From positions 3,237-67,236 of the forward strand of contig DAOLCW010000002.1 of assembly GCA_035327665.1 (NCBI GenBank): DNA of 64,000 bases. The letters run 5' to 3'. The translations under genes and the position numbers were made by a program. The stretch comes from Kiritimatiellia bacterium (GTDB lineage: Bacteria; Verrucomicrobiota; Kiritimatiellia; CAIVKH01). Shown one piece after another: positions 50,445 to 64,000 of the stretch; positions within the stretch are counted from its first letter, which is position 1, and every line of letters begins with the position of its first letter. The notes below the pieces were generated by a model. That model did not search any database. It saw only the letters and a list, made by a program, of their open reading frames with translations, and was not told the origin of the DNA.

Positions 50445-51329
50445 TCAGATCTTCTTCCTCAACACCAAAAGGATATCCGCATACTCGTCGTCAAACCTGC
50501 GGGGGGCGGCGAGGTCATACCGGAAGTCATAACAAGCCGCCACCTCCAAACCGGGCGCCCCCTCCCGAACCGTCCGCTTCAGTTGAGCCGCGTTATACGT
50601 CCGGAACGTCCACGACGTTTCATAATGTTGCGGGGGGTGCCCCCCCTTGATCACCTTCAACCGCGACCGCACCTCCTCCGTGCGCTGCTTCCGGTCCGGT
50701 GGCCATCCCCGAATGTTGCACACCACATCCACCCCGTCCCGCGAGGCCGTCCATCGCTCATGTTCGTAGACCGTCCTCGAATAGTCGGTCAAATGCACCC
50801 CCAGCAAATAGAGCCCGCCCGGCAGCAAGGCCTCTGCGACAAGATGGAGATGGGCTTGCGCCTCCTCCTCGGTAAGCAGATACTTAAACGTGCTCACTAA
50901 GCAATGGGCCAGCGCATACCTCTGACCGTTCGGAGGCGTGAACGCCTCCATCCGGTCCGGCCAGACCCGAACCGATCCACATCCCTCGACGGCAAGACGG
51001 CGTTCCGCGTAATCGATCATTCCCGGATGGGCATCAAAACCATGAGCGATCCATCCCTGACGATGAAATTGCCCCATCAGCCGCCCGCTTCCACATGCCG
51101 GTTCCAGGACATAGAGGGGGTCCGGCACCCGGGCAAGCCGGTGATGCCGCTGCCACGCCCCCACTAAAAACGCAGTTTCCCGCTCCGACCCGACATCAAA
51201 GATCATGTCGTAATAAACCGGCGTTTCGTACCAATCAAACGGTGTCAATTTTGCCATCCACACGTTCTTAAGCTGAATGCAGGCAATTGGCAAGGACTGC
51301 AAACTGAAATCCCTTCCCAACGACCGCAA
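50445..51329 (-). CDS. class I SAM-dependent methyltransferase (start possibly 51257)
   Basis: VLEPACGSGRL SAM motif I. Confidence 0.55.
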   Translation of the reverse strand: MRSLGRDFSLQSLPIACIQLKNVWMAKLTPFDWYETPVYYDMIFDVGSERETAFLVGAWQRHHRLARVPDPLYVLEPACGSGRLMGQFHRQGWIAHGFDAHPGMIDYAERRLAVEGCGSVRVWPDRMEAFTPPNGQRYALAHCLVSTFKYLLTEEEAQAHLHLVAEALLPGGLYLLGVHLTDYSRTVYEHERWTASRDGVDVVCNIRGWPPDRKQRTEEVRSRLKVIKGGHPPQHYETSWTFRTYNAAQLKRTVREGAPGLEVAACYDFRYDLAAPRRFDDEYADILLVLRKKI

Positions 51330-51558: not shown

Positions 51559-53010
51559 GTGGTTTTTATGTCCTCGTTACGTGGTTGCAGTGTAGTGCTG
51601 ATCCAGCCGCCGGACCCGGTTCCTGCGGCCACAGCGGTTGATTCCGGTGGAGGCGTATCCCTGCGCTTTTCTCCACCGTGGGATTTGCTCTGCCTTCGCG
51701 CCTTTCTTCTTAACCGGACCAGCCACCCCTGCCGGATTGTCGATACCCGCCTATTCGACCAATTCGAAACCAAGCTGAAGGATGCGTTGCGGGATATTGC
51801 TAAACCCGCTGTGGCGGTCATTCCCGTGCAGACCACCGGTCTGGGCGAGGCCAGCGCGGTGATTGATGTACTTCATCGCAACTATCCGGACATGCTGATC
51901 GTGACCTGCGGGCAGCACCCCTCAGACTTTCCCGAACTTGCCTTGAGTCTGCCCCATGTGCGCTATGCGCTCTGCGGCGATCCCGAGCCAATCCTCCGCA
52001 ACCTGCTTGATTACCACGATATCGAACGGCGCCTCCATCTGACGCCCGGATTGGCCTCTGCGGGAAATCCGGTACCTCAACCCTATTGGTTGCCCGACCT
52101 TCGCAGCCTTAACGTGGCAGACTGGACTCACCTCGACTGGGCGGGCTATGCCTCGGCCAGTCCGGCTGGCCTCCGGGCCGACATCCGGCTTTCCCGCGGC
52201 CACCCCCGATCTCCCGCCGATGTTGCCTCTGGCCAATCCGCTCAGCCCCTCCGCGAGTGGCCCCTCGATCGGGCGGCTGCGATGATCCAGCGATGCGCCC
52301 ATCATGGAATTGTGGAAGTGTTTCTCGGCGATTCCCCCGGTTATTGGACCGAGCAGCGACTCATCGCGTGGTCAAAGCAACTGATCACCCTCCGCTCCAC
52401 CCAAGCGTGGTCCGCTCAAATCCTGCCCCGGATGCTTAGTGAAAACGCCTTGAATTTCCTCTTCGACAGTCGCTGCCGGCGCATGGAAATCCTCTTCCCT
52501 TCCTGCGATCCGGAACGCCTGAAAACGGCCGGTGCCCTCCATGAACCAGCCAAAATCGCCGCCGCCATCGCCACGATTCGCAAGGCCAACATCGATGTGA
52601 ACCTGCGCTTCTGGGTCGGCGGCCCCCACGAGCGCCCCCGGGAGCGGGATCGAATTCTCGCCATGATCCGTCTGCTCGACGACTGCCCCTACTTTCTCTA
52701 TCCCTACCCTTACGAACCGACCGCTCCGGTTTTCCAAACCGAAGATTCGCCGGTTCTCGCCTCGGCAGGAATTCAACAATGGTTGAGCTGGGCCAAGGAA
52801 CCATGGCTTGCCGAGCGTCCGACGGCATTCTGGTCCGGCAAAGAAGGCGCAGATGCCTGCCAGCAGGTCATTCTTGATGTTCAACGCAAAGTCCACTTGA
52901 ACCCCGGCCGGCGCTTGCGCAAGACCCTTCGCCACCTCCGTTCGATCGATTGGATCGTGGCGTGGGAGCGAAGGGCCCTCGCCTTGTTCGCCAAACGCTT
53001 GGAAAGCTAG
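51559..53010 (+). CDS. B12-binding-domain / radical-SAM-like protein apparently lacking the CxxxCxxC cluster motif (hypothetical)
   Basis: N-terminus VVLIQPP...PPWDLLCLRAFLL...RIVDTR resembles B12-binding domain of class B rSAMs; position of Cys motif reads LSRGHPRSPAD. Confidence 0.4.
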   Translation: MVFMSSLRGCSVVLIQPPDPVPAATAVDSGGGVSLRFSPPWDLLCLRAFLLNRTSHPCRIVDTRLFDQFETKLKDALRDIAKPAVAVIPVQTTGLGEASAVIDVLHRNYPDMLIVTCGQHPSDFPELALSLPHVRYALCGDPEPILRNLLDYHDIERRLHLTPGLASAGNPVPQPYWLPDLRSLNVADWTHLDWAGYASASPAGLRADIRLSRGHPRSPADVASGQSAQPLREWPLDRAAAMIQRCAHHGIVEVFLGDSPGYWTEQRLIAWSKQLITLRSTQAWSAQILPRMLSENALNFLFDSRCRRMEILFPSCDPERLKTAGALHEPAKIAAAIATIRKANIDVNLRFWVGGPHERPRERDRILAMIRLLDDCPYFLYPYPYEPTAPVFQTEDSPVLASAGIQQWLSWAKEPWLAERPTAFWSGKEGADACQQVILDVQRKVHLNPGRRLRKTLRHLRSIDWIVAWERRALALFAKRLES

Positions 53011-56077: not shown

Positions 56078-56968
56078 TTGGCCATGATCGATTGGATCTG
56101 GCGGCAGATCGGCGTGTCCCTCCCTCCCGACTGGGAAATGCTACAATTCTCCCGCGAATCGAAGCGCGGCCGATGCGCCTTCGCTGACCGACGCCGCTTT
56201 CGCTTCGAGCTCAACTGGCATGCTTTTGCGGCGGAACCCGACTTCGACCGGATGATGACGGACTACGCATCCACCCTCGATGCGAATTGGCACGACATCC
56301 AATCCCTCCGGTGTGCCGGATGGCCCGGACTCACCGGTCGAAGAGAACATGAAATCGTCTCCCGTTTCGGACGTTATTTCCCCCTGATTGGCGTTCTCGT
56401 GGAAGCTGTGGTCATCCATCCCGAGACCCGCGATTCCGAACTCGAATCCCGGATTTTGGGTTCCATACGTCCCGTACCGGTTGATCCTGAAGGATATCAA
56501 CGCTGGCGAACCTTCGGCATGGACCTCAAGGTCCCCGCATCTTTTTCCTTCGCCGAGTCACAAGTCCAACCCGCCCGGTGCGGTTTGCTCTTTCAGTCCG
56601 ACAAAGGACCCGACCGATGGATCTTTCGCCGATATGGCATGCTTAAATCCTGGTTGAAAACACCCCTGCGCGAATGGCTGGAATCCCAAACCGACCCCGC
56701 CGTTCGCTACCGTAGGCTTGAAAGTGGCCTCATCCACACAATCCCCGTTGAGCGCGTTCATGGTGAATGGCGACCTCGTGGCCTACTCTTGAAAAAGGGA
56801 CTGTATGCCGCCTCGGCATGGATCGACCCACGCGATCAGCGCCTCTATCATGTGCAATGCATCACCTCAAAATCCAACCACGCCTTTCACCCTCGCGAAC
56901 GTGCGGAGAAGATCATGGCATCCTGCCCGGAGTTCTTCTCCCTTCCCAAACCCTCGATCGGCAAATGA
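56078..56968 (+). CDS. hypothetical protein, first gene of 6-gene operon (TTG 56078 or ATG 56084)
   Basis: 296-aa ORF, C-ending codon usage, no recognisable motif; stop overlaps next gene start (ATGA). Confidence 0.45.
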   Translation: MAMIDWIWRQIGVSLPPDWEMLQFSRESKRGRCAFADRRRFRFELNWHAFAAEPDFDRMMTDYASTLDANWHDIQSLRCAGWPGLTGRREHEIVSRFGRYFPLIGVLVEAVVIHPETRDSELESRILGSIRPVPVDPEGYQRWRTFGMDLKVPASFSFAESQVQPARCGLLFQSDKGPDRWIFRRYGMLKSWLKTPLREWLESQTDPAVRYRRLESGLIHTIPVERVHGEWRPRGLLLKKGLYAASAWIDPRDQRLYHVQCITSKSNHAFHPRERAEKIMASCPEFFSLPKPSIGK

Positions 56969-57360
56969 AATCCGAACGCACCACCACGTCTGAATTGCCC
57001 GCCTTATGGCAAGATCTGCTTTCCGCCGTTCTCCTTCGCAATCAAGCCGCTGAAGTCCTCGACGAAGCCCCCGACGGCTCGGTCATGCTCGCCGTCCCGA
57101 CCCGCAAGCCCGGCTTCCTGATCCCCCCCTTTTCATGGATCATCCGCCCGCCTCGGGAGCGCCTTACCCACCTCGACCCTATCGGGGCATCCCTGTGGCG
57201 AGCCTGCGATGGACGGGCCACTGTGGAGTCCCTTGTGGAAAAGTTTGCCATTCAGCACAGTTTAACTTTTCATGAGAGCCGTGTTTCTGTTACCTCCTAT
57301 GTCACGTCCTTGCTCCGCCGCGGTGTTCTTGCTGTGGCGGTAGGCACAGGTCAACCTTGA
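56965..57360 (+). CDS. PqqD-family / RiPP-recognition-element (RRE)-like protein
   Basis: ORF track start 56767 trimmed to ATG 56965; ...LDPIGASLWRACDGRATVESLVEKFAIQHSLTFHESRVSVTSYVTSLLRRGVL matches PqqD pattern (LN.tga.iW.lcDG.rtv.eI...l...y.......a..Dv..fl..L...gL). Confidence 0.6.
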   Translation: MKSERTTTSELPALWQDLLSAVLLRNQAAEVLDEAPDGSVMLAVPTRKPGFLIPPFSWIIRPPRERLTHLDPIGASLWRACDGRATVESLVEKFAIQHSLTFHESRVSVTSYVTSLLRRGVLAVAVGTGQP

Positions 57361-57415
57361 AAACCAAGCCTCGGAAAAAGCCCATCCGAATGAATACCAT
57401 CACGAGAATCAAGAT

Positions 57416-59506
57416 GTGACCTTCCGAGCCGTCATTCTGGGACTGCTGGGAGTTGCCTTCGTTAACTCCTACACCTACTTCAACGACTGGATCATGCGCC
57501 AGACCATGTTCGTGGGCAATTTCATGCCCATTTCCGTCTATGGCCTGCTTGTGATCTTCCTTGCTTTCCTCTACCCCCTCCTTTCCAAAATTAGCCGCGC
57601 CCTCCTGCTCCGCCGTTCCGAACTCGCGGTCATTCTCGTCCTCGTCCTCGCCTCCTGCGCGATCCCCGGCTCCAACCTCCTCCGCCTCTTTACCCCCGCC
57701 CTTGTCATGCCCCACCGTTTCGAAAAAACCGAACCGGGCTGGCAAAACCAACGCATCATGGATCTCGTCCCCGACGGCGCCTTTTCCATCGGAGCCGGCA
57801 AGACCGTCCCCTACTCCATGCTCGTCGACGTCTCCCGCGACGAAGAACTCGTACTCAGCGGCTTCACCCGCGGCCTCAGCGAAGCCTCCGACCGCCTCGC
57901 CTTCTCCGAGGTGCCATGGGACGCCTGGCAACCCGCCCTCATCTTCTGGCTCCCCATCATTCTCAGTTTGTGGATCGCCCTCGTCTGCCTTGCCCTCGTC
58001 GTCCATCGACAGTGGGCCGACCACGAGCACCTGCCCTACCCCATCGTCACCTTCACCAAATCCCTCCTCCCCGAGGAAAATGGCGACCGCGGTCCCATCC
58101 TCAGCAGCAAACTCTTCTGGCTCGCCCTCGGCGCCGTCTTCGCCATTCACGGCTACAACTACCTCAACCTCTGGTTCTCCAATTACCTGTTTGGCCAAAT
58201 TCCCCTCGGCATCGACTTCTCCTCCCTCTCCAACCTTTCCGACACCTTTGAAAAAGGCGGCGGACGCCAGCTCCTCGAAAAATTCACCCTCTACTTTACC
58301 GTGGTCGCCGTCGCCTACTTCCTCCCCAAGGAAGTCTCCCTCTCCCTCGGCATCGGCCCCTTTATCTGGATCTTCATCGCCGGCATGTTCGCCACCTACG
58401 GCGTCGGCGTCGGCGGCTGGCAGGGAAGCTGGCCGTTTGGCCTCACCATGGACGCCATGATGATCATGGGCGCCTACTTCGGCATGCTCGTTGTCCTCCT
58501 TTACACCGGCCGCCAATACTATTCCGCCGTGTTCCGCCGGGCCTTCGGCATCCCCTCCCGTGAACCCGTGGAAAGCTCCGCCATCTGGGGCGCCCGCTTC
58601 TTCATGATCGGCATGGCCTTCTTCACCGTGTACTCCGCCCTCGTCGCCGGACTCGACTGGCCCATCGCCCTCCTCTTCGGCCTCGGCCTCGTCGCTGTCT
58701 ACCTTGTCATGGCTCGCCTCCTCGCCGAAACCGGACTCTTCTTCATCGTCACCACCGGCACCCCCGCCACCCTCATCTGGGCCTTCTTCGGAGCCCGCGC
58801 CCTCGGCCCCGAAATCCTCTTCCTCATGTTCATGTTCTGCATCGTGCTCTTCTACGACACCCGCGAAGCCCTCATGCCCTATGTCGTCAACGGCCTCAAA
58901 CTCGCCGACGACTGCAAAGCCAAGGTGGGCCGCACCGCCTTCTTCGTCATCGTCGCCATTTTCGTCGGCCTCGGCGTCGGACTTCCCGTGACCCTCTACT
59001 TCCAATACTCCAACGGCGTCGATGTCTCCCTCTGGAAAATCGAGCAGGCCAAGCGCCCCTTCAACGAGACCATCAGCATCATGCAACGACTCGATGCCCA
59101 GGGCCAACTGGAGGAAGCCGGTCAGGTCACCGGAATCAAGCGCTTCCTCGAAGCTTCCCCCCATCGCAACGGCCTCATCGCCTTCTTCGCCGCCGCCGGG
59201 CTCGTCATCGGATTTTCCTTCCTCCGCCTCCGCTTCACCAACTGGCCGCTCCACCCCGTCATGTTCCTCGTCTGGTCCACCTATGCCGGCGACTCCTTCG
59301 CCCAGTCCTTCCTCGTCGGATGGTTGATCAAGCTCCTCATCACCAAATATGGCGGCATGGGCATCTACCAGAAATGCAAGCCCATCATGTTCGGACTCAT
59401 CGCCGGGGAAATGCTTGGCGGCGTCGTCCCCATGGTCGTCAGCCTCATCTACTACATCACCACCGGCGGCGAGCTGCCCAAACCCTTTGCCATCATGCCC
59501 GGATAA
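57416..59506 (+). CDS. large polytopic integral membrane protein, unknown family (GTG start)
   Basis: 696 aa, more than 12 predicted hydrophobic helices, several W/G/Y-rich loops. Confidence 0.55.
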   Translation: MTFRAVILGLLGVAFVNSYTYFNDWIMRQTMFVGNFMPISVYGLLVIFLAFLYPLLSKISRALLLRRSELAVILVLVLASCAIPGSNLLRLFTPALVMPHRFEKTEPGWQNQRIMDLVPDGAFSIGAGKTVPYSMLVDVSRDEELVLSGFTRGLSEASDRLAFSEVPWDAWQPALIFWLPIILSLWIALVCLALVVHRQWADHEHLPYPIVTFTKSLLPEENGDRGPILSSKLFWLALGAVFAIHGYNYLNLWFSNYLFGQIPLGIDFSSLSNLSDTFEKGGGRQLLEKFTLYFTVVAVAYFLPKEVSLSLGIGPFIWIFIAGMFATYGVGVGGWQGSWPFGLTMDAMMIMGAYFGMLVVLLYTGRQYYSAVFRRAFGIPSREPVESSAIWGARFFMIGMAFFTVYSALVAGLDWPIALLFGLGLVAVYLVMARLLAETGLFFIVTTGTPATLIWAFFGARALGPEILFLMFMFCIVLFYDTREALMPYVVNGLKLADDCKAKVGRTAFFVIVAIFVGLGVGLPVTLYFQYSNGVDVSLWKIEQAKRPFNETISIMQRLDAQGQLEEAGQVTGIKRFLEASPHRNGLIAFFAAAGLVIGFSFLRLRFTNWPLHPVMFLVWSTYAGDSFAQSFLVGWLIKLLITKYGGMGIYQKCKPIMFGLIAGEMLGGVVPMVVSLIYYITTGGELPKPFAIMPG

Positions 59507-59508
59507 CC

Positions 59509-60981
59509 ATGAAGCCCATTGATGTCAAAGAACAACCCATCCTCAGCGCCGGGCGCGTCTTCCAAATCGCCCTCTCCGGCGTCAAATACCGCCTCTTTCG
59601 CGCCGCCGTCACCGTCGCCGTCATCACCGTGGCCATGGCCTTCCTCATGAACATCCTCACCGAGAGCCTCATCAAACGGGCCGTCGCCGACTCCGTCCGC
59701 GAGCAAATCGAGGATCTCCGCACCGTCGACGCCTGGATCGCCAAACTTTCCATCCCTCAGACCACCGAGGAAATCCTCGAACAGATCGCTTCCGTCTCCC
59801 AATCCGAACTCGACCTCCACGAACTCGTCCACATGAGCGGAAAGCCCTCCGAAGCCCTCCTCGCCGCCGAACCCGTCGCCCGCGACGCCCTCTTCTATCT
59901 CCGCTTCTTCAACGACATGAACTTTGGCCGCCGCCGCGTCCTCGTCGGTAGCGCCGAAGCCACCCGGATCTTCGACCACCTCCAAACCCCCGCCGCCTGG
60001 CAAACCTTTACCGCCAACCTCGCCGACATGCACACCATCCGCTTCCCTGCCGCCGTGGAGGACTTCGAAGCCTTCCTCGCCGCCTGGCCTGACCTTCGCT
60101 CCCTCGTCGCCTCCGTTCGCGACGGCCAGGCCCGGGCCATCCGACACGTCCAGCGAAACCTCGGCGACACCCCGCTCGCTCAAGCCCTCCGCGCCGCCGA
60201 CGGCCCCTTCGGCGAAGTCCTCCGCGAGGCAGGCTTCGCCCTCTCCGAACGTCAGGCCGCCACCCTCTCCACCGAAGTCGAACGCCTCGAAGCCATCCAG
60301 CGCATCGAAGGCACCATTAACAACCCCGGCATCCGCCAGGCCGTTGCCGCCGACCGCGATGTCCTCCCCGGCGACGTCTCCATGCAACTCATCTGGGGAC
60401 TCCTTCGCCAACGCGACCGCAGCGAGTGGTTCTACGACCTCATGGCCGAGCATGGCCTCAACGTCGATCAACTTTCCCCCCAACGCATCGAGGAACTCGC
60501 CGCCCATCAAGGCCACGTTCGCCTCCTCAAAATCGCCGAACGCCAGACCACCGGGGCTGGCGGCGGCTTCATGGACATCGGACCCCGCATGACCTGGCTC
60601 GCCATGGTCTCCATGCTCGTCTGCGCCGTCGGCATCACCAACGCCATGCTTATGTCCGTCACCGAACGCTTCCGCGAAATCGCCACCCTGAAATGCCTCG
60701 GCGCCCTCGATGGCTTCATCATGGTCGTCTTCCTCATCGAAGCCGGCATCCTCGGCATCGTCGGCGGCATCGGCGGGGCCATCATCGGACTCCTCCTCGG
60801 CTTCGTCCGCATGCTCTTCACCTTCCAAAGCCTCGCCTTCAACGCCTTCCCCCTCACCCAACTCCTATACGCCGGACTCATCTCCATCGGTCTCGGCATG
60901 ATCCTCGCCGCCGTCGCCGCCGTGTACCCGTCCATGCGGGCCGCCCGGCTCGCTCCCATGGAGGCCATGCGCATCGAATGA
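59509..60981 (+). CDS. FtsX-family (type VII ABC / MacB-LolC-like) permease with single N-terminal TM, ~340-aa extracytoplasmic alpha-helical domain, then 3-TM FtsX domain
   Basis: ORF track start 59320 trimmed to ATG 59509; C-terminus ...MSVTERFREIATLKCLGALDGFI...YPSMRAARLAPMEAMRIE is canonical FtsX. Confidence 0.75.
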   Translation: MKPIDVKEQPILSAGRVFQIALSGVKYRLFRAAVTVAVITVAMAFLMNILTESLIKRAVADSVREQIEDLRTVDAWIAKLSIPQTTEEILEQIASVSQSELDLHELVHMSGKPSEALLAAEPVARDALFYLRFFNDMNFGRRRVLVGSAEATRIFDHLQTPAAWQTFTANLADMHTIRFPAAVEDFEAFLAAWPDLRSLVASVRDGQARAIRHVQRNLGDTPLAQALRAADGPFGEVLREAGFALSERQAATLSTEVERLEAIQRIEGTINNPGIRQAVAADRDVLPGDVSMQLIWGLLRQRDRSEWFYDLMAEHGLNVDQLSPQRIEELAAHQGHVRLLKIAERQTTGAGGGFMDIGPRMTWLAMVSMLVCAVGITNAMLMSVTERFREIATLKCLGALDGFIMVVFLIEAGILGIVGGIGGAIIGLLLGFVRMLFTFQSLAFNAFPLTQLLYAGLISIGLGMILAAVAAVYPSMRAARLAPMEAMRIE

Positions 60982-61745
60982 CCGCCACCCTTCCAGCCTC
61001 CCCGACCATCGATCCGGCCACCTCCCAGCGCGTGATCATCCGCACCGTCGGCATGAAGAAGATCTACCGCCGCGGCGAGGAAATCACCCATGCCCTTCGC
61101 GGCGTCGATGTCGAAATCTACACCGGCGAATTCATCACCGTCATGGGCCCCTCCGGCTCCGGAAAGAGTACCTTCTTCAACATGATCGGCGCTCTCGACA
61201 GCCCCTCCGAAGGCCGCGTCTTCATCGATGAAGTCGATGTCGCCCAACTGACCGCCGAGGAACTCGCCTTCCTCCGGTGCCGCAAGATCGGCTACATCTT
61301 CCAGTCCTACAACCTCATCCAATACATGACCGCCCTTGAAAACGTCACCACCCCCATGGCCTTCGGCGGCGTCTCCCCCGACGTCGCCCGCGGACGCGGC
61401 ATGGATCTGCTCGACCTCGTCGGCCTCAAGCCCCGCTGGTTCCACCGCCCCATCGAAATGTCCGGCGGCCAGCAGCAGCGCGTCGCCATCGCCCGCGCCC
61501 TTGCCAACCAACCCTCCATCCTCCTTTGCGACGAGCCCACCGCCAACCTCGACCACCGCACCGGCGACGAAATCCTCGATATTCTCCAGAAGCTCAACAA
61601 GGAACGCGGCGTGACCATCATTTGCGCAACCCATGACCACCGCATGATGAACATCTGCGACCGCCTCATGTGGATACGCGACGGCGGCATCGAACGCATC
61701 GCCCGCCGCGACGAAGTTCAAGTGGAGGTCGGCAGCATTGAGTGA
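60978..61745 (+). CDS. ABC transporter ATP-binding protein, MacB/LolD/FtsE-type
   Basis: ATGA overlap with FtsX gene; Walker A GPSGSGKST, Q-loop, signature MSGGQQQRVAIARAL, Walker B ILLCDEPTANLD, H-loop ATHD. Confidence 0.85.
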   Translation: MTATLPASPTIDPATSQRVIIRTVGMKKIYRRGEEITHALRGVDVEIYTGEFITVMGPSGSGKSTFFNMIGALDSPSEGRVFIDEVDVAQLTAEELAFLRCRKIGYIFQSYNLIQYMTALENVTTPMAFGGVSPDVARGRGMDLLDLVGLKPRWFHRPIEMSGGQQQRVAIARALANQPSILLCDEPTANLDHRTGDEILDILQKLNKERGVTIICATHDHRMMNICDRLMWIRDGGIERIARRDEVQVEVGSIE

Positions 61746-64000
61746 CCTCCTCTCCAACCTCACCGCCGCCCGCCTGTTCCTCGTCGCCGGGATCTGGCTT
61801 GCCGCCGTCGCCCCCGCATCCGCCTCCCTCCGCGCGGATGTCGAAGCCCTCACCCGTCATCCCCACCGCTTAAGCGGCACCCCCGAATACGCCGCCGCCG
61901 CCGATCACGTCGAGCAGCGCCTTCGCGACATCGGAATCACCAACCTCGTCGTTCAGGAATTCCCCTCCGTCCAAAACAAAATCCTCCGGGCTGAACTTGT
62001 CGCCGGCGAAACCACCTTCCCCCTCGTCCCCGCCCGACCCAACGGCATCATCCCCCCCACCACCCCGCCCGCAGGCATCACCGGCGAACTCATCGACCTC
62101 GGCGACGCCACCGACGACGACCTCAACCGCATCAACGTCCATGGCCGCATCGTCGTCATGTCCTACAACGCCCACATGCAGTGGTACAAAGCCTTCCGCC
62201 TCGGCGCCCGCGCCGTCATCTTCACCGATGGCCACGAAGGCGACTCCCTCCACCAACACTACCTCCGCGTCAATGCCAACCTCCCCCGCTATTACTACGA
62301 GGGCGACCGCGCCAGCCTCCCCTTCGGCCAGACCGTAACCCTCCATTCCGAAGTCACCTGGCAACGAACCACCGGCCGCAACATCATCGCCTTCCTTCCC
62401 GGAACCGACCCCGTCTTCGACCTCGGTCGCGAAGAAGTGGTCATCATCGCCGCCAACCTCGACACCTTCGGCGACTTCCCCGCCGCCTCCCCCGGCGCCC
62501 GCTCCGCCGCCAACGTCGCCGGCCTCCTCCACCTTGCCGAAACCTTCAAGAACAATCCCCCCCGCCGCCACATCGTCCTCGCCTTCTTCGACAACCAAGC
62601 CCGCTCCCATGCCGGAGCCATCGCCTTCTACTGGGCCCTCGAAAACCGCATCCCCGAAGCCACCATCGCCGCCCGCCTCGAATCCTGGCAGGCCGAAGTC
62701 GAATTCCTCGCCAACATCAGCGCCATCCTCGCCCAATCCAACCCCCTCGAGCACCTCGCCATGCCCGGCGGACGCCGCCTCGACGACCGCCTCAACGACA
62801 AGGCCCGCGACCTCGCCCTCGACCTTCGCGGACGCCTCATGCAAATGCGCGAAGCCTACCTCGCCCACGCCGAGGACCACCCCGATGACGAAACCCGCCG
62901 CCAGCAGCTCCGCCTCGACATCGAAACCGCCGAAGCCGAATTCGACCTCTGGAACGACCTGCGCCGGGCCCTTCGCCGGGCCCGCGGCATCCCTCCCGAA
63001 CTCCAGCCCCAGCTCGACCGCGTCATCCAATCCGTCCGCGACGACGTCGCCCGCCGCCAGCAGGAACTCCGCGACACCGAATCCATGCTCCTTTCCTCCA
63101 AGCGCATCTTTGACCTCCTCGGCGATCGCTGGATCACCCTCCACACCTCGCTTATCCTCGGCGACAGCACCGCCCGCTGGGGCGTCATCATCGGCGGCGA
63201 CTCGGAAATCCGCAACGCCGACCTCGACCAGCCCGGCCTCTACGGCCGCGTCCAGCAAAGTTTCCTTCGCGCCTTCGACGCCCAAGTCCGGGCCGGCCAG
63301 CCCGCCCGCAATTTCGAACGGGCCACCGTCGACGCCACCCTCACCCAGCCCCGCCTCATCTGGGCCGCCCGCGGCCTCATCCACAGCGGTGAAGTCTCCG
63401 GCCGCTACGGCATCTACAACATCGTCCTCGGCACCACCCACGAAACCCTCCCTCGCGAAGGCACCCCCGCCGACACCCTCGACCAGCTCGACCTCGATCG
63501 CATCGAAACCAAAATCCGCGAAATCGGCGGCATCATGACCGCCCTCGGCAACCTCAACGCCCAGGTCGGCGAGGTCGAAGCCGTCGCCGACCAGCGCGGC
63601 CTTTCCCTCCGCCGGGTCATCGGCACCGACTACTCCTACATCAACCCCCGCTTCCGCAACCAGGTCAGCGAAGGCGCCATGGCCATGGGTCGCCATCGCG
63701 GCAGCTCCATCCCCAACCTCCCCGTCCGAAATGCCGTCATTCAGGTCAACATGGTCCAGCCCTGGAACCGCATCATCTGGCCCCACAACAAATACCCCGC
63801 CTTCGATCCCTTCCAGGTCATCATGACCGACCAAAACGGCTCCTACACCATCGGCGGCCTCGCCAAGCAGGACTCATGGCCCCAGCCCACCGCCTTCGCC
63901 GCCCGCTTCAATGCCCGCGGCGTCCCCTTTGAAGTCTCCGACATGCGGTCCGTCAACTCCCTCCGCACCCGCATCAACATGGTCCGGGCCCGCGGCGGCT
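61738..64000 (+). CDS. secreted PA-domain M28-family homologue with degenerate metal-ligand motifs (pseudo-peptidase) and long helical C-terminal region; 3' end beyond window; TTG start tentative
   Basis: not in ORF track (no in-window stop). Signal peptide LFLVAGIWLAAVAPASA; PA-like GRIVVMSYNAHMQWYKAFRLGARAVIFTD; M28 motif positions read AANLDT / GARSAANVAGL / FFDNQ. Confidence 0.6.
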   Translation, partial: MSDLLSNLTAARLFLVAGIWLAAVAPASASLRADVEALTRHPHRLSGTPEYAAAADHVEQRLRDIGITNLVVQEFPSVQNKILRAELVAGETTFPLVPARPNGIIPPTTPPAGITGELIDLGDATDDDLNRINVHGRIVVMSYNAHMQWYKAFRLGARAVIFTDGHEGDSLHQHYLRVNANLPRYYYEGDRASLPFGQTVTLHSEVTWQRTTGRNIIAFLPGTDPVFDLGREEVVIIAANLDTFGDFPAASPGARSAANVAGLLHLAETFKNNPPRRHIVLAFFDNQARSHAGAIAFYWALENRIPEATIAARLESWQAEVEFLANISAILAQSNPLEHLAMPGGRRLDDRLNDKARDLALDLRGRLMQMREAYLAHAEDHPDDETRRQQLRLDIETAEAEFDLWNDLRRALRRARGIPPELQPQLDRVIQSVRDDVARRQQELRDTESMLLSSKRIFDLLGDRWITLHTSLILGDSTARWGVIIGGDSEIRNADLDQPGLYGRVQQSFLRAFDAQVRAGQPARNFERATVDATLTQPRLIWAARGLIHSGEVSGRYGIYNIVLGTTHETLPREGTPADTLDQLDLDRIETKIREIGGIMTALGNLNAQVGEVEAVADQRGLSLRRVIGTDYSYINPRFRNQVSEGAMAMGRHRGSSIPNLPVRNAVIQVNMVQPWNRIIWPHNKYPAFDPFQVIMTDQNGSYTIGGLAKQDSWPQPTAFAARFNARGVPFEVSDMRSVNSLRTRINMVRARGG

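Follow-up and report, generated by a model that had tools for sequence, protein, structure and literature searches.

A 64,000-nucleotide stretch of DNA from a Kiritimatiellia bacterium (assembly GCA_035327665.1, contig DAOLCW010000002.1, positions 3,237 to 67,236 of the forward strand), hereafter called the window, encodes a small protein resembling a RiPP recognition element (RRE), the PqqD-like domain of pathways for peptides that are made on the ribosome and modified post-translationally (RiPPs). The question raised by this locus was what such a protein, here gene B, does where no RiPP pathway accompanies it. The analysis indicated that gene B has a fixed place in a conserved module of several genes present in at least four phyla of the Planctomycetes-Verrucomicrobia-Chlamydiae (PVC) group, and that every hallmark of a RiPP-pathway RRE except the fold is missing. 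Gene B was found where the initial annotation had placed it, directly behind the gene here called A (lengths in amino acids, aa):

56078-56968, forward strand: gene A, 296 aa counted from TTG 56078; the deposited protein begins at ATG 56084
56965-57360, forward strand: gene B, 131 aa, from ATG 56965 to TGA 57358-57360; PqqD/RRE-fold protein, soluble and of near-neutral charge

Fold and sequence class of the gene B product

The assignment of the C-terminal 60 aa to the PqqD/RRE pattern, for which the initial annotation had proposed a profile check, was borne out. The Pfam model PqqD (PF05402) matched residues 63-122 with 31.9 bits (gathering score 23.4, E 1.7e-7), and the orthologues scored 29.6-45.2 bits. 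A protein identical to it, from a Kiritimatiellia metagenome-assembled genome (MAG), carries the database name "PqqD family protein [Kiritimatiellia bacterium]", and 37 close homologues with 46-100% identity were found. When 1.84 billion cluster representatives (clusters at 50% identity) were searched with a profile of the family, 1218 matches passed a threshold of E<=1e-3, of which 457 reached E<=1e-10. The same profile matched a single sequence of the PDB, PqqD 3g2b, with an E of 0.22.

The AlphaFold2 (AF2) model of the protein (pLDDT 78) contained three N-terminal strands, a Pro-rich loop of lower confidence at about residues 46-64, and a strand-helix-strand-helix-helix order thereafter; the N-terminal beta-strand region and the Pro-rich insertion noticed earlier were thus both seen. 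Its winged-helix fold superposed on solved RREs, with the lasso B1 proteins as the best-ranking matches and scores of 8.2 for TigE, 7.5-8.1 for MibB, NisB and MadB, 7.4 for the PbtF RRE and 7.2 for PqqD. DNA-binding winged helices scored only about 5. The product of gene B was thus confirmed as a PqqD/RRE-fold protein. Furthermore, an L-x-F-H-E-S-R-V-S-V motif at the alpha2-alpha3 junction and the strand aligned to RRE beta3 were nearly invariant across phyla.

None of the type-specific models was matched at its cut-off. The scores were 12.6 bits against 46 for PqqD of PQQ biosynthesis (TIGR03859), 17 against 80 for lasso peptide B1 (NF033536), 26.9 against 100 for ScmD (TIGR04248) and 16.1 against 100 for the GeoRSP PqqD (TIGR04302), and no pqqA, pqqB, pqqC or pqqE gene was present in the window neighbourhood of gene B. 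The protein also differs from the lasso B1 proteins (TbiB1, TfuB1) and from PqqD in its construction and context: an additional helix lies at the N-terminus, a loop of 20 residues is Pro-rich, its groove motif hardly varies across phyla, the RRE is C-terminal in fusions, its partner is not an enzyme (neither a B2 protease, nor a C cyclase, nor a radical SAM protein), and it stands without a precursor gene in a transporter operon.

The conserved module and the missing RiPP genes

The genomic context was compared in 91 loci, obtained from context look-ups and from a scan of one genome per species, in which the open reading frames (ORFs) were labelled with profiles of seven families (A-G). Kiritimatiellae, Lentisphaerae/Victivallales, Verrucomicrobia (with Opitutaceae among them) and Planctomycetota together supplied 80 species loci; a few loci bore the labels Omnitrophota or Sumerlaeia, and one came from the cultured Oligosphaera ethanolica DSM 24202. 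Of the 52 loci whose sequence extended 6 kb or more downstream, 36 had A and B followed by D, E and F, and by G where the sequence reached it. Gene C was mobile: in Kiritimatiellia it follows B (ABCDEFG), in many Lentisphaerae, Opitutaceae and Victivallales it precedes A (CABDEFG), and about a dozen loci lack it locally (ABDEFG). The D, E, F and G genes stayed. The genes flanking the module differed between genomes, and its boundary was therefore set at A. Within the PVC group the module has the character of a conserved housekeeping operon.

Gene A directly preceded gene B in 63 of the 73 species loci, and where the gene order changed the two shifted together (for example, in locus L011 and in the orders beginning CAB). 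Among the best 150 representatives of the B family, 20 were A-B fusions of 338-507 aa whose N-terminal parts matched the gene A profile with E values from 7e-29 to 2e-95; the fusion is therefore recurrent. From the other side, two of the 173 gene A homologues, P0204 (418 aa) and P0257 (481 aa), were fusions with a C-terminal PqqD domain. Hence, the term orphan, used in the initial annotation, does not describe gene B, and the 296-aa upstream protein, suggested there as one of several interaction candidates, turned out to be its constant and often fused partner.

The product of gene A had no match in Pfam, NCBIfam or PDB sequence searches. Its AF2 model was very confident (pLDDT 95), and structure comparison indicated a non-enzymatic beta-sheet binding fold like that of Mog1, PsbP, DcrB and Eag chaperones, with lobes resembling SciW, PA0094, DcrB and LpqN. 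Since no structural match spanned more than roughly one half of the protein, and its order of secondary-structure elements occurs twice over, gene A apparently consists of two lobes of a Mog1/PsbP/DcrB-like fold in one chain; an internal repeat was not detectable at the sequence level. The invariant residues are a GRCAFADR motif and several Arg and Trp; no His is among them, which makes a Cys-His protease triad unlikely. The fold is read as a binding scaffold and not an enzyme. In comparison with Eag/DUF1795, DcrB, PsbP/Mog1 and the type VI secretion immunity proteins TplEi and Tsi3, gene A showed no membership of these families in the sequence searches, combines two lobes in one chain with an invariant GRCAFADR of its own, and is cytoplasmic and coupled to an RRE. 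Neither A nor B contains a transmembrane (TM) or other hydrophobic segment, and they are the only soluble cytoplasmic products of the module.

Several loci deviated around gene A. In L010:8587-9932 gene A was missing and an IS200-type Y1 transposase gene lay directly upstream of the PqqD-like gene; an IS200-type insertion may have replaced gene A there. Three Kiritimatiellae MAGs carried A-family genes, 51-54% identical to that of the window, without an adjacent PqqD gene (L021:1042-3430, L023:2162-4577 and L024:4747-7135), in each case directly downstream of a gene of about 500 aa, which in L021 was photolyase-related by Pfam. Locus L082:1-20789 contained two paralogous modules in tandem, one in the order F G D E B' E and, behind it, one in the order A B D E F G; the former had a diverged PqqD-like gene without FHESRVSV, no A gene, two ATPase genes and an OPT-like protein with a diverged N-terminal tail.

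As regards RiPP genes, the surroundings of gene B encoded neither a lasso cyclase nor a lasso protease, and neither YcaO nor a functional radical SAM protein; no modifying enzyme (radical SAM, YcaO, LanB, lasso B2/C or ThiF-like) was found among the operon genes of the 91 loci. The earlier statement that no RiPP enzymes occur within about 8 kb thus held for functional ones, and had passed over a degenerate radical-SAM-like ORF of 483 aa at 51559-53010 (forward strand). Its B12-binding and radical-SAM matches were both below the Pfam thresholds and it lacks CxxxCxxC, the sequence reading SRGHPRSPADV at that place; it may be a degenerate, non-catalytic radical SAM relative. This ORF is divergent from a class I SAM methyltransferase gene at 50445-51329 (reverse strand). 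Both, together with SpeA and FabI, were considered as partners of gene B and rejected as chance neighbours, since none of the 91 other loci has them beside the operon.

In line with the initial annotation, no plausible precursor was detected: the gaps of the 91 loci (the loci, not whole genomes) held no conserved small ORF in or between operon genes. The only recurrent insert was a gene of about 160 aa between D and E, present in three unrelated loci (L027:14871-15329, L038:14856-15350 and L054:8531-9028) and taken, by its length, for a "23S rRNA intervening sequence"/four-helix-bundle gene of the same sort as the PF05635 gene that was called adjoining the module at L010:21396-21827. Promoter/terminator and Rfam scans around gene B gave nothing informative.

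Membrane and ABC transporter genes of the module

Downstream of gene B, the window contains the following features of the module, the last of which runs off its end:

57390-57419, forward strand: upstream ORF (uORF) MNTITRIKM*, 9 codons, stop at 57417-57419
57416-59506, forward strand: gene C, from GTG 57416, 696 aa, polytopic; DUF6785 254 bits and DUF6784 73 bits (Pfam)
59509-60981, forward strand: gene D, 490-aa FtsX-type (MacB/LolC-like) permease, Pfam FtsX 52 bits, start confirmed
60978-61745, forward strand: gene E, 255-aa ABC ATPase, ABC_tran 106 bits, start confirmed
61738-64000, forward strand: 5' part of gene F, TTG start, signal-like N-terminus

These genes are closely packed, with ATGA overlaps at A/B (56965-56968) and at D/E, 2 nt between C and D, and an overlap of 8 nt between the start of F and the stop of E. 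In at least 14 loci, the stop codon of B overlapped the start of the membrane gene behind it, either C or D. Such an overlap had also been claimed for the window itself; a gap of 55 nt separates B from C here, and only the stop of the uORF overlaps GTG 57416. The uORF, also noticed earlier, is present in the sequence, had no counterpart in 57 other junctions between B and the next gene, and is probably fortuitous. The proposed link of gene B to the membrane/ABC machinery was upheld in so far as the genes are genetically tied, and failed in the choice of the 696-aa DUF6785 protein, which is not the constant neighbour. As an obligate receiver this protein was rejected: its position varies, about a dozen loci lack its gene locally, and elsewhere the gene stands alone.

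Genes D, E and F have the features of a type VII ABC system, namely an FtsX permease with a large periplasmic loop between TM1 and TM2, and an ABC ATPase. The TM segments of D were located at residues 32-50, 364-382, 403-421 and 452-470, with about 310 aa in the periplasmic loop. The best NCBIfam matches of E were of the LolD/DevA/FtsE/MacB/DarD type, all below their cut-offs, and the specific LolCDE, MacB and FtsEX equivalogs were not reached in the operon: LolCE scored 44 against 362, MacB 48 against 966, LolD 215 against 308 and FtsE 198 against 265. The presence of two different FtsX-bearing proteins, D and F, suggests a LolC/LolE-like heterodimer.

In relatives, gene F encodes about 1600 aa, with a signal-like N-terminus, a PA/M28 (nicastrin-like) ectodomain, several TM segments, a MacB-type periplasmic domain and an FtsX module. 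Pfam recognised FtsX (40-48 bits), Peptidase_M28, Nicastrin and MacB_PCD in the orthologues (L001:14894-19660 and L069:13818-18674), the MacB_PCD match being weak, the Nicastrin match occurring in L069, and the Peptidase_M28 match being partial (model positions 1-64 of 193). M28 peptidases bind zinc through His/Asp/Glu/Asp/His and have a catalytic Glu. In an alignment of 15 gene F sequences, the positions which we take to be these residues were changed, GAxD to GAR[SA]A and EE to DN, with the first His mostly replaced by Asn. For this reason, the domain appears to be a pseudo-peptidase that has lost its metal ligands, and as a consequence the M28-like protein cannot serve as a leader peptidase. 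Gene F also has long coiled-coil-like stretches, and the combination of a pseudo-peptidase with a type VII ABC permease is an unusual architecture.

Gene G encodes an OPT-like permease, which passed the OPT gathering score in L069 (33.1 against 25.8) and not in L010. Its mean column identity was 74%, and a tail of about 30 residues before TM1 was highly conserved. Gene C has about 15 hydrophobic segments, and its alignment with G by hhalign was collinear from end to end and weak (E 7e-4, probability 26%); judging from its sequence, the DUF6785/6784 protein is possibly a distant OPT-like permease. Homologues with about 45% identity stand alone (L007:10001-12082 and L008:10001-12022) beside sulfatase, polysaccharide lyase and GFO/IDH oxidoreductase genes and GntR/TetR regulators. 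This proximity to sulfatase and carbohydrate genes suggests that independent permeases with a link to glycan use belong to the family. Three members of 918-932 aa (P0117, P0122 and P0140) had a charged, coiled-coil-like insertion of about 250 aa in the first large loop; at L009:1589-4387 a protein with this insertion was followed by FtsX and giant genes, with no PqqD gene immediately upstream.

Long ORFs of 469-654 aa, low in complexity and rich in G/E/A/D, lie antisense to the operon genes on the reverse strand (57302-59254, 59452-60861 and 61870-63834) and look like shadow ORFs of a GC-rich coding strand. The GC skew of the operon region was strongly negative.

Among known systems, the transporter part is like MacB, LolCDE, FtsEX, DevCA and DarCD in combining FtsX-type permeases with four TM segments and a large periplasmic loop with a LolD/MacB-like ATPase. 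It differs from these type VII systems in that the operon has no membrane-fusion or TolC-like gene, all equivalog scores are far below the cut-offs, one permease is fused to an ectodomain of about 900 aa with the apparently inactive M28/nicastrin-like domain, and OPT-like permeases and a cytoplasmic RRE module accompany it. An RRE is associated with an ABC exporter in NisB-NisC-NisT, where the RRE-containing dehydratase NisB docks on the type IV-fold exporter NisT and the precursor is co-encoded; dehydratase, type IV-fold exporter and co-encoded precursor are all absent from this operon.

Function of the A-B pair

A mechanism can be proposed in which genes A and B would form a two-part soluble cytoplasmic module, made of separate chains here and of a single fused chain in many relatives, and would act as a dedicated subunit of an enzyme-free type VII (MacB/LolCDE/FtsEX-like) ABC system. 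The permease would probably be a heterodimer of the 490-aa protein D and the FtsX module of F, assembled with a dimer of E and cooperating with OPT-like permeases, of which there would be one or two (gene C, the DUF6785/6784 protein, and gene G). An extended peptide segment would pair with the RRE as an added strand beside the beta3/alpha3 groove, gene A would supply a second binding surface, and gene B may hand over a peptide.

The near-invariance of the alpha2-alpha3 motif and of the beta3 strand of gene B sets it apart from RREs that change together with variable leaders, and points to an equally conserved ligand. The groove motif hardly changes from phylum to phylum, and the operon is accompanied by no small ORF; the most likely ligand would therefore be a stretch of the machine's own cytoplasmic sequence that is itself conserved, rather than a variable leader peptide. 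The N-terminal tail of gene G is the first candidate for this segment, though a doubtful one; alternatively, the ligand might be a peptide cargo encoded elsewhere.

Overall, the reading that we favour, with somewhat more confidence than doubt, is that A-B serves a type VII ABC/OPT-like machine as a soluble subunit in the cytoplasm that binds a peptide or a tail, an RRE having been recruited for it outside RiPP biosynthesis. A more specific version is put forward tentatively: the RRE and the fused or adjacent Eag/PsbP-like protein could be, for good, the cytoplasmic recognition subunit of an undescribed PVC machine composed of a type VII ABC transporter, a pseudo-M28 ectodomain and OPT-like permeases. 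The RRE would then recognise either a conserved tail of the machine or unmodified ribosomal peptides bound for export.

Some observations weigh against this proposal. Gene A lacked an adjacent B in 10 of the 73 species loci, the linkage being strong and not obligate, and in 16 of the 52 long loci A or A-B was separated from the transporter genes and surrounded by housekeeping genes unrelated to them (LigA, polyprenyl synthase, and genes that are photolyase-related or SurA-like). Type VII ABC systems are not known to use cytoplasmic peptide adaptors. The fold, the partner, the fusions, the operon membership and the lack of RiPP genes were established directly; peptide binding, a physical complex, the ligand, and the direction and cargo of transport are inferred, and the choice of the gene G tail is a guess from conservation.

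Other explanations were weighed against the same evidence. Gene B could be a RiPP RRE acting in trans, with its precursor and enzymes located elsewhere or belonging to an unrecognised class, and with the ABC/OPT genes as exporter of the product. By far most RREs occur with RiPPs, and one encoded close to transporters is taken as a RiPP marker (PMC7470986), the lasso B1 proteins rank first among the structural matches, and the relatives of gene E include the darobactin exporter DarD (194 bits, below the cut-off). Such a role is difficult to reconcile with 91 loci without a precursor-like conserved small ORF or a modifying enzyme, with a fused partner of non-enzymatic binding fold, and with gene F, whose peptidase-like domain, the only one present, is apparently inactive. 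The motif is invariant across phyla, unlike in leader-coevolving RREs, the distribution of the module is phylum-wide and housekeeping-like, and the type-specific NCBIfam RRE models scored far below their cut-offs; we consider this explanation improbable. Still less credit is given to a winged-helix DNA-binding regulator of the operon, misread as an RRE owing to the related folds, which we regard as very unlikely.

The fold of gene A brings in another explanation, that A-B is a transient assembly chaperone shielding hydrophobic or TM segments of F, or of another subunit, before membrane insertion, without belonging to the machine once it works. The Eag chaperones SciW and PA0094 grip TM helices, and the lobes of A resemble both, as well as DcrB and LpqN. 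A and B, the sole soluble cytoplasmic products, are moreover tightly co-translated with the membrane genes. However, this fold is generic and common to the non-chaperones PsbP, Mog1 and immunity proteins of type VI secretion systems, and the signal-like N-terminus of F suggests ordinary Sec targeting; we consider a chaperone role unlikely.

The favoured interpretation, a peptide- or tail-binding subunit of the transporter, implies that a familiar fold occurs in a setting that is undescribed and not biosynthetic; this setting is robust, and the function is a proposal. No literature was found on DUF6785, DUF6784, this gene combination or the system as a whole, and that on RREs outside RiPP contexts contained nothing on this system. 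In the RRE-Finder paper, discrete RREs outside RiPP clusters are regarded as false positives or possible unknown classes (PMC7470986).

RRE domains serve as a class-independent marker in the mining of RiPP clusters. If the proposal is correct, the phylum-spanning subfamily of gene B (457 clusters at 50% identity, E<=1e-10) would be a systematic false positive in such mining, and a leader-recognition fold would be active outside natural-product biosynthesis, a stand-alone RRE having for the first time a housekeeping role unrelated to RiPPs. Additionally, an uncharacterised seven-gene envelope/transport module, present also in a cultured organism, O. ethanolica, has been defined, and the DUF6785 and DUF6784 families gain a concrete functional context.
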